Origin: Alphaproteobacteria bacterium
GTDB lineage: Bacteria > Pseudomonadota > Alphaproteobacteria > UBA828
NCBI GenBank assembly: GCA_965237415.1
Contig: CBDEFM010000002.1
Span: 3,424,001 to 3,488,000, forward strand
Length of the DNA stretch: 64,000 nucleotides
Direction of reading: 5' to 3'
The notes under the pieces are model-generated. The model did not search any database, was not told where the DNA came from, and saw only the letters and a list, made by a program, of their open reading frames with translations. Position numbers and translations under genes: made by a program. Below, piece by piece: positions 55,283 through 59,898 of this stretch (position 1 is the first letter of the stretch; every line of letters begins with the position of its first letter).

Positions 55283-56923
55283 ATGAGCCGGGAATCGATG
55301 GAGTATGACGTGGTGATCGTGGGCGCGGGCCCCGCCGGGCTCGCGGCTGCCATACGCTTGCGTCAGCTCGCCGAGGAGTCCGGCCGCGAGATCAGCGTGA
55401 CCGTGCTGGAGAAGGGTTCGGAGGTAGGCGCCCACATCCTCTCCGGCGCCGTCTTCGAGCCTCTCGCGCTGGACGAGCTGATCCCGGACTGGAAGGAGAA
55501 GGGTGCGCCGCTTAACACGCCGGCAGGCAGCGACGAGTTCCGCTACCTCACCGCCAAGGGCAGCATCAGGATGCCGGGTGCGCTGCTGCCGCCGCAGATG
55601 CGCAACCACGGCAACTACATTATCAGCCTCGGCAATCTCTGCCGCTGGCTGGGTCAGCAGGCGGAGGAGATCGGCGTCGAAATCTACCCCGGCTTCGCCG
55701 CAGCCGAGGTGCTCTATCACGAGGACGGCCGGGTCAAGGGCGTCGCCACCGGCGACATGGGCATCGCCAAGGACGGCAGCCAAAAGGCCGGCTACGAGCC
55801 GGGCATCGAGCTGCATGCAAAGTACACGCTGTTCGCCGAAGGTGTGCGCGGTTCGCTGACAAAGCAGCTGGTCGAGCGTTTCGACCTGCGCGCGCGCTCG
55901 GACCCGCAGACCTACGGTATCGGTCTCAAGGAGGTCTGGGAGATCGAGCCCGACAAGCACCGGCCGGGCCTGATCCAGCACAGCTTCGGCTGGCCGCTTG
56001 ATAGCCGCACTTATGGCGGCTCCTTCCTCTATCACTTCGATGAGAACCTGGTCTCGATCGGCTTCGTGATCGCCCTCGATTACGAGAACCCGCACCTCTC
56101 GCCCTTCGACGAGTTCCAGCGCTTCAAGACCCATCCCTCGATTCGCCCCGTGCTTGAGGGGGGCCAGCGGCTGGCCTACGGCGCACGCGCGATCAACGAG
56201 GGCGGATACCAGTCGATTCCCGAGACCGTCTTCCCAGGAGGCGCGCTGATCGGCTGCGCCGCAGGCTTTCTCAACGTGCCCAAGATCAAGGGCAGCCACA
56301 ACGCGATGAAGAGCGGCGCGTTGGCGGCAGAGGCGGCGTTCGCCGCGCTGGGCGAGGCCGATGACGGCACGAAGCCGCTCGACGCCTACCCGGCGGCACT
56401 TCGTGACTCTTGGGTGGTCAAGGAGCTCAAGCAGGTCAGGAACTGCCGCCCAGCGTTCCGCTGGGGGCTCGCCGTCGGCACCGTGGTCAGCTTCATCGAG
56501 CTTTGGACCGGCGGCGTGCTGCCCTGGACGCTCCGCCATCGGCATGACCACGAAAGCCTGAAGAAGGCAGCCGATGCGCCGAAGATCGCTTACCCGAAGC
56601 CGGACGGCGTCGTCTCCTTCGACAAGCCGAGCTCGGTCTACCTTTCGAACACCAATCACGAGGAGGATCAGCCGGCGCATCTTACGCTCAAGGACCAGGG
56701 CGTGCCGATACGGGTGAATCTCGCGCTCTACGACGCGCCGGAGCAGCGCTATTGCCCGGCCGGCGTCTACGAGATCGTGGAGGACGCCGCAGGCCCGCCG
56801 CGCCTGCAGATCAACGCGCAGAACTGCGTGCACTGCAAGACCTGCGACATCAAGGACCCCACGCAGAACATCGAATGGGTGGTGCCCGAAGGCGGGGGCG
56901 GCCCGAATTATGCCAACATGTAG
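55283..56923 (+). CDS. Electron transfer flavoprotein:ubiquinone oxidoreductase
   Basis: [47 protein letters not shown]. Confidence 0.97.
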
Positions 56924-58715
56924 GGCAGGGGAGGGCGCGACCCAGAGTCGGCGGGGTGCACGCGGCCGCTGTCGCCGCACGGTCGGCTGGTTGAGCGGTG
57001 CGCTCGCCGTCTGTCTGACAGGCGGGATCTGCACGGGCGGTCTGTGGGCCGCCGATGAACAGACTCCGCCCCTGCCGCCGGAGCCCTCGGCCAGCGCCTA
57101 CCGCGACAACGGCTCGCCGATCGGCAGCTATCTCGTCGGGCGCTACGCCCACGCCCGCGGCGACTATGCCGCAGCGGCCAAGCATTTGCAGCGTGTCCTG
57201 AACACGGATCCCGACAATCCCTCGCTGCTGCGCCGTACTGTGTCGTTGCTGGCCGCCGAAGGTCGGATCGAGGCAGCGGCCGCGTTCGCGCGGCGCCTCG
57301 TCGAGGTCGACAACGACGCGCGGCTGGCCCCCTTCGTTCTCGGCTTGCAGGACGCGCGAAACGGCGACTACGAGGGCGCTCTGCAGCGCATCGACGCGAT
57401 CCGCCGCGACGGCGTCTATTCCCTCTTGATCCCTCTCGCCGAGGGGTGGCTGCACACCGGTACCGGGTCGGACGCCGCGGCTCTGGCGGCCCTCTCGCCG
57501 CTCGCCGATCGCGACGCCTACCGACCCTTCTATCTTCTCCATGCCGGCCTGATGCACGATCTCGCAGGTCGCGAGGCGGAGGCCGAGGCTCTCTTGCGGG
57601 AGGCCGTGGCGATTTCCGCCGGCTCCCACCGCCCGGTGGCGGCGCTCGGCAGCGTTCTGTTGCGGGCCGGGCGCACCGTCGAGGCCCGCGCGGTCTACGA
57701 GCAATACCGCGCGCAGAATCCCGAGAATATATGGGTTGAGCGTGTGCTCGCGGCCGCCGATGCCGGCATGTCGGTGCCGCCGCTCGTTGCCGACGCGCGC
57801 GGGGGGCTGGCGGAGGCCCTGCTCGGTGCAGCTGCCGCCCTGCCGCAGCGGGACAATGGCGACGCCGCTGTGATCTATGCGCGCCTTGCCCTCTTCCTCC
57901 GCGACGATCTGGATTCCGTTCGTTTTCTGATCGGAGAGATTCTCGAACAGACGGAGCGGGTGGAAGCTGCAGTAGACGCCTACCGGTCCATCCCCGCCGG
58001 GTCGGACTACGCCTGGGCCGCACAGCTTCGCGCTGCCTCCGGCCTCGCGGACCTCGACCGGCAGGACGAGGCGATCGCTGCGCTGAACGCCATGGCGGAC
58101 GAGCGCCCCGGGCGAATCGACGCCGCCTCTGCTCTCGGCGACGTGTTTAGGGTGGATGAGCGCTACGAGGAAGCCGCAGCCGCTTACGACATGGCGATCG
58201 GGCGGCTCGCGATCGTCGAGGACCGCCACTGGCGCCTCTTCTACGTGCGCGGCATCGCGTTTGAGCGTTTGGGGGAATGGCCCAAGGCCGAGGCCGATTT
58301 CCTGCGCGCGTTGGAGTTGGAGCCGGATCAGCCGCTCGTTCTCAACTACCTCGGCTATTCCTGGGTGGAACAGGGGCGCAATCTCGACGAAGGCAAGACC
58401 ATGATCGAGAAGGCGGTCGAGCTCAGGCCGGACGACGGCTACATCGTCGACAGTCTCGGTTGGGTGGCGTACAGGCTGGGCGACTTCGAGGAGGCGGTCT
58501 ACCAACTCGAGCTGGCGGTCGAGCTGGTGCCAGGCGATCCGATCATCAACGATCACCTGGGTGACGCTTATTGGCAGGTGGGCCGGCTGAACGAGGCGCG
58601 ATTCCAGTGGCGGCGCGTTCTTACCCTTGAGCCGGAGGACGAGCTCGCCGACCAGATCCGGCGCAAGCTCGCGGACAGCCTCTCCGCCGGGGCGGAGGCT
58701 GACGAAGCAGAATAG
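56910..58715 (+). CDS. TPR repeat protein (ETF-QO/ispE-linked)
   Basis: [28 protein letters not shown]; start uncertain. Confidence 0.88.
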
Positions 58716-58733
58716 AGTGCCCGCGGTAATTGA

Positions 58734-58996
58734 CCCGCAATTCTCACCACGGTCGTGGCCTGCGTCGCACCCAGGCGTTCGATCCGCCAGGAGCGGGCCG
58801 AAAAGCGTATCGGGGAATACGGTTGAGGCCCGCGACGCCGCGGGCGGGCGCCTAGGTGCGACCCGGAGGGCGGCGGTATCCGGCCGACAGTGTGCGTCAC
58901 TGCGCATGCCCGATGCCCCACATCGCGCTGCGCGCCGTTCCTTCCCTGTCGGCCGGATACCGCCGCGCAGACCATGACCGTGGTGAGAAATGCGGG
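58734..58996. mobile_element. 263-bp MITE-like, highly self-complementary element inserted in the ispE 5' end
   Basis: 31-bp TIRs CCCGCAATTCTCACCACGGTCGTGGCCTGCG / rc CCCGCATTTCTCACCACGGTCATGGTCTGCG (3 mismatches); two long internal hairpins; flanks TTGA and TTAG. Confidence 0.75.
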
Positions 58997-59898
58997 TTAG
59001 GGTCGGGGCGCCGGCCAAGCTCAACCTTTACCTCCATGTGACCGGCCGCCGCGCCGACGGCTATCACGAGTTGGACAGCCTCGTCACCTTCACCGGGCTC
59101 GCAGACACGCTGGAGATCGCGCCGGCCGGATCCCTCCGCCTCAGCGTAACCGGCCCGTTCGCCGGCGCCTTGGATGCGGGCGACAATCTGGTCGCGCGGG
59201 CGGCGACGGCGCTGGCGGAGAAGCTTGGCCGCCCCGCTAATGTGCGAATCACGCTCGACAAGCGCATCCCGATTGCGGCCGGCCTCGGCGGCGGCTCGGC
59301 CGATGCGGCTGCGGTCCTTCGCGGCCTCGCCCGGCTGTGGCGGCTCGGCGCCGGGCACGCAGGCGATCTTCGGGAGACCGCGCTCGGTCTCGGTGCCGAC
59401 GTGCCGGTCTGCCTCGACTCGCGCGCCGCCCACATGGCGGGCATCGGCGAGGCGTTGAGCGCACCGCCGCACCTGCCGCCATGCGGCGTGCTGCTGGTTA
59501 ATCCCGGCGTGCCGGTGCCCACCGGGCCCGTCTTCGCGGCGCGGCGCGGGCCGTTCTCGGCCGCGAGCCGCATCGATGAAGCCCCGCAGAATGCGGCGGC
59601 GCTTGCCGCGCTGCTGCGCAGCCGACGCAACGATCTGGAACAGCCTGCGCTCGCTCAAGTGCCCGAGATCGGCCGAGTGCTCGCCCGGCTTGCCGCAGCC
59701 CCCGGTTGCCTGCTGGCCCGCATGTCCGGCTCGGGCGGCACCTGTTTCGGCCTGTTCGAGGACGAGGCGGCGGCAGCCGGCGCAGCGGACGCCATCGCTC
59801 GCGACGATCCGGCCTGGTGGGTGCAGCCGACACGGCTCGTCCACGATGGTGGGATGGCCGAGACGGCGGACGAGGTGGCTACCCTCGGCGGGTCGTGA
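58990..59898 (+). CDS. ispE: 4-diphosphocytidyl-2-C-methyl-D-erythritol kinase
   Basis: APAKLNLYLH, GYHELDS, IPIAAGLGGGSADAA, GADVP, MSGSG. Confidence 0.96.
   Translation: MRVRVGAPAKLNLYLHVTGRRADGYHELDSLVTFTGLADTLEIAPAGSLRLSVTGPFAGALDAGDNLVARAATALAEKLGRPANVRITLDKRIPIAAGLGGGSADAAAVLRGLARLWRLGAGHAGDLRETALGLGADVPVCLDSRAAHMAGIGEALSAPPHLPPCGVLLVNPGVPVPTGPVFAARRGPFSAASRIDEAPQNAAALAALLRSRRNDLEQPALAQVPEIGRVLARLAAAPGCLLARMSGSGGTCFGLFEDEAAAAGAADAIARDDPAWWVQPTRLVHDGGMAETADEVATLGGS

Follow-up and report, generated by a model that had tools for sequence, protein, structure and literature searches.

Start codons supplied by a miniature inverted-repeat element at ispE and other genes of uncultured Alphaproteobacteria: evidence from genome comparison

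The window analysed here is a 64,000-nucleotide (nt) stretch of contig CBDEFM010000002.1 (assembly GCA_965237415.1), from an alphaproteobacterial metagenome-assembled genome (MAG). Towards its right end lies ispE, the gene for 4-diphosphocytidyl-2-C-methyl-D-erythritol kinase, and across the 5' end of ispE lies a MITE (miniature inverted-repeat transposable element). We are nearly certain, from comparison with relatives, that this MITE entered codons 5/6 of ispE, in an insertion shared with G004, the nearest sister species, and that an in-frame ATG in its own end now starts the protein as MRVRVGAPAK..., replacing MPAVIRVGAPAK.... The same comparisons indicate that the MITE family as a whole donates start codons repeatedly, ispE being one case among several, so that a preliminary description of the window, which had seen one unusual domesticated copy, was too narrow. 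The donated ATG is buried in a very stable RNA stem. Our explanation taken whole, with a MITE insertion, an element-borne ATG and re-initiation at that ATG after translation of a leader, we judge evenly poised between right and wrong.

An element-borne start codon at ispE

The genome that contains the window (G000; relatives are likewise G-numbered, and all are MAGs) consists of two contigs totalling 4.75 Mb at roughly 70% GC, and is 96% complete with 6% contamination. Its ispE follows a TPR-repeat gene, a neighbourhood kept across the genus loci (Table 1). Read outward, the right terminal repeat of the MITE ends ...TGA CCG TGG TGA GAA ATG CGG GTT, followed by the TA of the target. The 3' end of 16S rRNA was located in G000 (...GGATCACCTCCTTTCT), and GGTGA matches its UCACC at a spacing from the ATG equivalent to about 6 nt when aligned on GGAGG. 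Past 58990 the frame offers no start before codon 16, which already lies beyond the conserved PAKLNL motif with its catalytic lysine.

Is this a working gene? Its product matches GHMP_kinases_N and _C in Pfam (E 1e-14 and 4e-14), and an alignment with solved IspE (PDB 8qcc/1oj4, E about 1e-36) pairs its residues 1-263 with residues 1-255 there, the N-terminus MRVRVGAPAKLNL meeting the MRTQWPSPAKLNL of the solved chains residue 1 to residue 1. G000, which is 96% complete, carries ispE once and encodes IspH; HMG-CoA reductase was looked for there and not found. Between G000 and G004, 25 of the 37 differences in ispE fall at codon position 3. The single copy, the N-terminal alignment, the third-position bias and the setting of the methylerythritol phosphate (MEP) pathway together argue that ispE is functional and that 58990 is its only credible start.

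Upstream, GTG 58717 stands 1 nt past the stop codon of the TPR gene and begins a leader of 86 sense codons, read in the frame of ispE. This leader stops 12 nt upstream of the ATG, a second in-frame TGA follows at 58984-58986, and the leader is unbroken in the G004 orthologue.

Table 1. Positions of the features at the ispE locus, in window coordinates
Feature	Position	Strand	Remarks
TPR-repeat gene upstream of ispE	56910..58715	+	From the open reading frame (ORF) list; stop TAG at 58713-58715
Leader ORF	58717..58977	+	Native GTG, 5 native codons, 81 codons through the element, TGA at 58975-58977
Left target duplication copy	58731..58732	.	TG, degenerate form of TA; from family consensus ends and empty sites
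MITE, 265 nt	58733..58997	+	Forward orientation, left end toward the upstream gene
Left terminal inverted repeat	58733..58763	+	5' arm of the outer helix
Internal hairpin 1	58764..58862	+	Helices 2-4 of the family consensus
Internal hairpin 2	58870..58966	+	Perfect 21-bp basal stem; arm deleted in the short derivatives of the family
Right terminal inverted repeat	58967..58997	+	3' arm of the outer helix; two in-frame TGA, GGTGA, ATG
Shine-Dalgarno-like GGTGA	58982..58986	+	Complementary to UCACC in the 16S rRNA 3' tail; 3 nt before the ATG
ispE	58990..59898	+	N-terminus MRVRVGAPAKLNL...; first 8 nt element-derived
Right target duplication copy	58998..58999	.	TA

The ispE site in related genomes

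We retrieved ispE from 39 of 41 genomes, G000 included, and read the sequence upstream of it in 29 relatives. Of the 20 relatives within the genus, 18 are free of the element at ispE. G004, whose IspE is 96% identical to that of G000, shares the insertion at the identical position, and G018 has an independent one. The three nearest empty sites, in G007, G019 and G020, read TAG-N-GTG CCN GCN NNN ANN NGG GTC GGN GCG CCG GCC AAG, and the native ispE start is therefore the GTG 1 nt past the TPR stop. More distant members of the genus lack this GTG and probably start ispE at an inner GTG (MIRVEAPAK). The target TA spans ispE codons 5/6, and because its T was a third codon position, ATG 58990 is in frame; the net insertion is 267 nt, or 89 codons. 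Much of this had been proposed in the preliminary description: a MITE-like insertion of that net length in ispE, downstream of a native GTG lying directly behind the TPR gene; a start within the terminal repeat, buried in an outer stem; and further copies and empty ispE sites still to be found. The relatives and the genome-wide copies bear out all of these points. Its reconstruction of the site before insertion, GTG CCC GCG GTA ATT AGG GTC, is in register with G007, G019 and G020, but an empty allele found on environmental contigs, described below, has ATC CGG in place of ATT AGG.

The insertion in G018 (L044, element at locus 1165-1485) is a 321-nt family variant at the TA of the TPR stop codon. 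There the TA and the first G of the element regenerate TAG. A mini-ORF of 7 codons begins at the end-borne ATG, and its TGA shares letters with the native ispE GTG (GTGA).

Start-codon donation at other genes

A blastn search of G000 with the element gave 77 matches. Counting the query itself, 24 of them have aligned lengths of 250 bases or more, with identities of 70-91%. Another 167 sites resemble the 19-nt end, and 63 of these carry an ATG reading outward. In G000 an element ATG starts tpiA, lptD, a metE-like gene (Meth_synt_2) and the gene of a livH-type permease. The next start of each falls beyond conserved N-terminal sequence, and the orthologues in G007, G019, G020 and G009 have empty sites and a native ATG. 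The target TA lies at coding nt 9-10 in tpiA, the metE-like gene and livH, and at nt 6-7 in lptD, and the element ATG replaces the native one almost in register (MAPES becomes MRAKF and MKLST becomes MRVST, for example). The tpiA and lptD insertions are common to G004; the metE-like and livH insertions are absent there. The lptD copy of G004 (L096, element 1336-1508) lacks hairpin 2.

For a census, 60 copies from G003, G004, G008, G011, G017 and G020, 56 of them with both ends, were joined to 20 from G000, making 76 elements. An ORF counted as coding-like at 150 codons or more with GC3-GC2 >= 0.25 and GC3 > GC1+0.05 (GC content by codon position), and 'fused' below denotes a call by this GC3-based gene heuristic. 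Two simpler criteria were discarded: a first GC3-GC2 filter let antisense frames through and was tightened, and long ORFs alone would not serve, given runs of at least 250 codons at 32/43/4 of the 167 ends in frames 0/1/2 and after 13% of random ATGs. Coding-like ORFs followed ATG-bearing ends 20/5/0 times in frames 0/1/2 (78 ends: 14/2/0 of 40 right ends and 6/3/0 of 38 left ends) and ATG-less ends 4/4/2 times (74 ends: 3/3/2 of 36 and 1/1/0 of 38). Frame 0 is therefore favoured only where an ATG exists. Pfam families were found in 17 of the 21 frame-0 ORFs of G000, and all 15 ORFs from other species that were sent to Pfam proved to be real genes. An end-borne ATG also starts further genes in five sister species, the fusions including CbiJ, a HisZ-like protein, a GalU-like NTP transferase, an ABC ATPase, Hda, a formyltransferase, an amidase and SodC.

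Two of the copies shared by G000 and G004 have diverged differently. Over 57500-59858 the two genomes differ at 91 positions, about 4-5 per 100 nt in both genes, and 40 of the 52 mismatches in the TPR gene are at codon position 3. Centred on the ispE element is a trough, 58572-59070, with 5 mismatches in 499 nt; the element itself differs at 2 of 265 positions, both unpaired. Either this copy is under unusual constraint, or a filled-allele tract of about 500 nt recombined between the lineages. The tpiA element (G000 C2:1986885-1987149 versus G004 L091) has, by a count made by eye, 24 mismatches and 1 indel, about 9%, compensatory stem changes included, and its flanks have 2/200 and about 10/300 mismatches (1-3%). 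This divergence suggests conversion from other copies or hairpin-templated mutation.

The element family

In 20 aligned copies the ends are shared, TA-GCCCGCATTTCTCACCA...TGGTGAGAAATGCGGGC-TA (family consensus TA-GCCCGC...GCGGGC-TA), and similarity breaks off exactly at them, which sets the limits of the element at ispE to 58733-58997. TA stands on both sides of most of the 20; at ispE the left TA has become TG. The orthologous empty sites for ispE, tpiA, lptD, the metE-like gene and livH have one TA only, or a related sequence. With terminal inverted repeats, a target duplication matched by empty sites, and many small dispersed copies which at 265-266 nt are too short for a transposase, the segment is a MITE, a non-autonomous inverted-repeat element. 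The copies in G000 are 86-96% identical, and the family is therefore old. Near-full copies (E <= 1e-50) were found in at least 18 of the 20 other genomes of the genus and in none of 20 genomes of other genera; cross-genome copy counts are floors, since 18 candidates were scored per genome. A plasmid collection gave one partial match only, covering 26% of the element at 84% identity.

Target duplication of TA is a hallmark of IS630/Tc1-mariner elements. The MITE has this duplication, and its ends are unlike those of the resident IS630-type insertion sequence (IS). In G000, the only genome searched, no autonomous partner with matching ends was found; there are 11 DDE_3 matches there, and long-range pairs of ends enclose ordinary genes. 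Three candidates were rejected: C1:408727, a 75-nt remnant adjoining an unrelated IS; C2:131709-133029, an acyl-CoA-ligase-like gene; and the resident IS630-type element, whose ends (CTAGTCACCTGG...) agree with the MITE only up to CTAG. The last is 1190 bp long with a 379-codon ORF (379 aa) containing the DDE_3 domain, and its copies, five in all (G000 C2:3661899-3663087, L064-L066, L068, C1:409235-410423), are 96-99.9% identical. End-like fragments of it abut two MITE copies, on the right flanks of C2:3148781 and C2:2072097.

Between co-directional genes of G000 about 15 copies lie forward and 3-4 reverse, by heuristic gene calls. Many left ends sit on the stop codon of the upstream gene and many right ends just before TAAGGAG-type sites. 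We attribute this bias towards gene starts to the concentration of TA, in a genome of ~70% GC, in stop codons and beside Shine-Dalgarno sequences.

Several variants were seen. Short derivatives without hairpin 2 (173-207 nt) occur in G000 and G004, with deletion end points within the hairpin 2 stem, and environmental contigs skip hairpin 2 with window joints from 58872 to 58965 and from 58879 to 58972. On the smaller replicon of G000, two identical 450-nt variants (C1:14891-15340 and C1:257961-258410) lie in opposite orientation, each adjoining an identical 403-codon open frame without a Pfam match; the pair is either a large inverted duplication, spanning about 243 kb, or a repeated segment. 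The window itself has a lone right-end repeat of the family at 1632-1650 (TGGTGAGAAATCCGGGCTA, without ATG), which adjoins an AT-rich stretch; an ATG at 1691 lies about 40 nt downstream, and no left partner was found within 520 nt.

Fold of the element

The minimum-energy RNA fold of 58717-59005 has -195.7 kcal/mol, as against a mean of -135.1 (standard deviation 5.9) in 200 shuffles, none of which equalled it (z -10.2). It is a three-way junction in which the outer stem, 58731-58764/58966-58999, encloses a 97-nt hairpin (58765-58861) and hairpin 2, whose base is an unbroken 21-bp stem (58870-58890/58946-58966); the fold and its coordinates are as first described. Being built of inverted repeats, the minus strand is almost as stable (-190.6 kcal/mol, z -10.8). 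The search of Rfam gave no family at its gathering score; the only match, MIR1437, scored 23 bits (E 0.37) where 168 would be needed.

The pairing is also conserved. The consensus fold of 15 G000 copies has 105 pairs with 97.8% of cells paired, and its outer helix 29 pairs with 97.9%. Changes on both sides compensate one another in 24 of the 105 pairs, 10 of them in the hairpin 2 stem; 500 shuffles gave 9.2 +/- 1.9 and never reached 24, and slid partners gave 1-4. At five positions G-U pairs are fixed on the forward strand only, and these may reflect selection on RNA or on a single-strand fold. For the compensated pairs, co-evolution of transposase sites is a possible cause in the outer helix and hairpin-templated repair in the internal stems.

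The ispE ribosome-binding site is thus locked within a stem of roughly 31 bp. The duplex of left with right arm has -63.0 kcal/mol, and opening 58978-59003 costs 44.6 kcal/mol; on these figures unaided initiation on the folded message is implausible.

How is the buried start used?

How might ribosomes reach this ATG? We propose that they would still start at the native GTG 58717, coupled to the TPR stop, and translate the 86-codon leader through all three helices, unwinding them. They would terminate at TGA 58975, on top of GGTGA, and re-initiate at ATG 58990. This sequence of leader translation, unwinding, stop and restart is what we infer at ispE, at chances even or a shade below. The preliminary description had already suggested that translation of the leader melts the stem before re-initiation; the family now lends that idea indirect statistical support, and the mechanism itself keeps the standing just given.

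The support comes from the frame in which a native start reads into the element, which is the phase fixed by the TA (A as first codon position). All twelve 265-nt copies of G000, and one of 322 nt, can be read in this frame through 81 or 100 codons up to a first stop, the TGA 23 nt before the exit end; in the 292-nt metE-like copy the leader stops at the second TGA (-14). When these copies are read in reverse, a stop closes the phase 167-248 nt short of the exit. In 266-nt copies the duplication itself, as TA(A/G), closes the frame 8 nt past the ATG, and it often does so in both orientations. Across the census, the through-frame stops within -25 to +3 nt of the exit end at 19 of 21 fused and 22 of 57 unfused ATG-bearing ends (Fisher p 3e-5), and the association is the same without the ATG restriction. 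Left ends alone, where the element is reversed, show it as well (5/6 fused versus 6/32 unfused, p 0.005). Of the 21 fused copies, 16 have a native start in the same frame, 1-9 codons ahead of the entry TA. The ispE, tpiA and lptD orthologues of G004 retain their leaders despite a 1-nt length change at tpiA and the loss of hairpin 2 at lptD. The through-frame association favours re-initiation after translation of the leader.

Several observations weigh on the other side. Right-end fusions alone are weakly associated (14/15 versus 16/25, p 0.06), five of the 21 fused copies show no native start nearby, and the lptD leader of G000 stops 116 nt downstream of the ATG and not near it. The copies are related by descent, and the Fisher tests therefore overstate significance. 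Most forward copies have the through-frame open regardless of fusion (45 of 61 unfused elements), and the open frame could be a chance trait of a GC-rich master copy, for which we estimate about 0.2 per frame over 81 codons. Nor are outer stems weaker in fused copies, as had been considered; if anything they are stronger (median -59.7 versus -55.8 kcal/mol, p 0.02), and strong stems fit a route through RNase III at least as well.

Contigs from RNA libraries offer a point in favour as well as a further reservation. Runs holding part of the stretch number 18, of which 11 are recorded as RNA; three RNA runs and one of unrecorded type were examined, as assembled contigs without molecule ends. The 3' end of the TPR gene is bridged into the left arm (to 58786-58817) in 4/4 runs, including all three RNA libraries, and no piece among those listed bridges the right junction, which is normal for assembly at a repeat. 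DNA may be present in RNA libraries, and these contigs therefore do not show transcription. In each of the RNA libraries X1 and X3, a single contig passes from 58730 to 59000 and reads GTA ATC CGG GTC across the join, with CC between the two sides. Its flanks differ from G000 at 4 of 349 positions, as against 13 of 349 for G004. The CC and the other variants identify the join as the empty-site allele of a related strain, not an excision product.

What else might release the start codon? The strongest competitor, though unlikely, keeps the insertion and the ATG and has the ribosome-binding site freed by a cut of RNase III or another endonuclease, which would part the TPR message from that of ispE and leave the latter with a short unstructured 5' end. 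RNase III is known to act on the Correia/nemis repeats of Neisseria, and in E. coli the ribosome-binding site of adhE becomes accessible only through RNase III. The duplexes here are long (29 consensus pairs in the outer helix, 21 unbroken bp internally), and the 24 compensated pairs of 105, the forward-only wobble pairs and the orientation with transcription make it seem that structure matters at the RNA level; fused copies, moreover, keep equal or stronger stems. Cleavage would leave unexplained why fusions cluster at ends with an open through-frame, however, and the basal 10-15 bp holding GGTGA and the ATG would stay paired with the upstream fragment.

Distinctly less probable is that no dedicated mechanism is needed, stem breathing, co-transcriptional initiation or helicases being sufficient and the leader incidental. 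IspE may be required only at a low level, and when transcription and translation are coupled the right arm emerges last, though the left arm is by then free to pair. At equilibrium, however, the 44.6 kcal/mol opening cost makes initiation negligible, highly expressed genes such as tpiA share the arrangement, and the family-wide association with an open through-frame goes unexplained.

Of slightly lower probability still is transcription of ispE from inside the element, downstream of the left arm, such that the masking stem never forms. A promoter that points outward near the right end would be in keeping with the orientation bias as well, and one orientation of the Acinetobacter element MITEAba12 comes with an outward promoter (PMC6382973). 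A consensus scan of 58400-59200, however, gave 0 sigma-70-like promoters and 0 terminator-like sites, the promoter consensus being a weak guide for alphaproteobacteria; 6 of the 21 fusions are in reverse orientation; ispE lies 1 nt past the TPR gene at empty sites, which suggests an operon; and the dependence on the through-frame would again go unexplained. That the element is removed from the RNA, as the preliminary description had allowed and the join in X1 and X3 might suggest, or that the locus is an assembly artefact or a pseudogene, is very improbable: the join has CC where excision would leave TA or nothing, and 4 further flanking differences; the filled site recurs in the independent genome G004 and, at the left junction, in contigs of 4/4 runs; and the ispE frame is intact and under purifying selection.

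Returning to leader translation and re-initiation, we can extend the proposal to the family as a whole, with a little less confidence than we give it at ispE. Each end has two stops, GGTGA and an ATG 8 nt before the TA, and the interior is open in the single phase that permits an in-frame fusion, so this selfish family may be built to live in gene starts. Insertion within codons 1-9 would turn a gene into a two-cistron relay with a leader of about 86-92 codons, and the arrangement would persist in essential genes (ispE, tpiA, lptD) across speciation, perhaps spreading as a filled allele by recombination.

Significance and comparison with known systems

Three things are new here. The family itself is an undescribed, genus-wide MITE family in uncultured alphaproteobacterial MAGs. 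The repeated replacement of start codons in essential-type genes is, on the evidence of the empty sites, the second. The third is a retained native start with a leader ORF that spans the element and stops at the element's own start, for which the statistics favour a relay. For annotation of these bacteria it matters that real start codons are overlapped by roughly a fifth to a quarter of the copies in the family. Should the relay prove real, the element can enter the 5' ends of essential genes without death of the host, by means of its own stop-restart cassette, and bacterial mobile DNA has more safe landing sites than supposed. Gene starts of the MRA... and MRV... type, which otherwise resemble annotation errors, would be explained, and the element would be a natural portable module of translational coupling with an extremely stable masking stem. 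The use of ribosome-binding sites buried in very strong structure, an old question, becomes directly testable.

Our literature search, in the main texts of a limited collection, found no MITE with an arrangement of through-ORF and re-initiation. Correia/nemis of Neisseria and ERIC/YPAL of enterobacteria are TA-targeting, co-transcribed MITEs with long hairpins and orientation-dependent effects on mRNA processing or stability. The present family resembles them by general description alone; their reputation rests chiefly on promoters, IHF sites and effects of RNase III/E, and they are not known for the replacement of starts in essential genes. In termination-reinitiation coupling, an upstream ORF ends a few nt from a base-paired downstream Shine-Dalgarno sequence and start. 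Here the element would deliver such a cassette ready-made, and the upstream ORF would be the remnant of the same gene.

A close parallel is MITEAba12 of Acinetobacter, whose outward terminal repeat supplies a start codon and MQQS in three insertions (PMC6382973), so that both MITEs donate an end-borne start codon and the first residues to a neighbouring gene. By the available portions of that report, MITEAba12 is 113 bp long, folds weakly (about -24 to -27 kcal/mol) and is closed by stops in every frame; its fusions come from annotation only, and comparison of empty sites, essential genes, a through-ORF and a masking stem are not described in those portions. The REP2 repeats of Neisseria bring a promoter, a ribosome-binding site and also an ATG to many ORFs (Delihas 2011, PMC3184786). 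As far as the portions of that paper at hand go, REP2 lacks terminal inverted repeats and has its own promoter, whereas inverted ends of 31 nt, duplication of a TA, empty sites and a host start kept as leader mark the present family. Given these inverted ends, and with no promoter-like site found in the scan above, the family is not of the REP2 type and the likeness is functional only. Rickettsia palindromic elements are tolerated within coding genes by staying in frame (2024 review, PMC10969869). In the sections of that review available to us they are translated into the host protein; the present element carries in-frame stops, and translation would restart at its own ATG.

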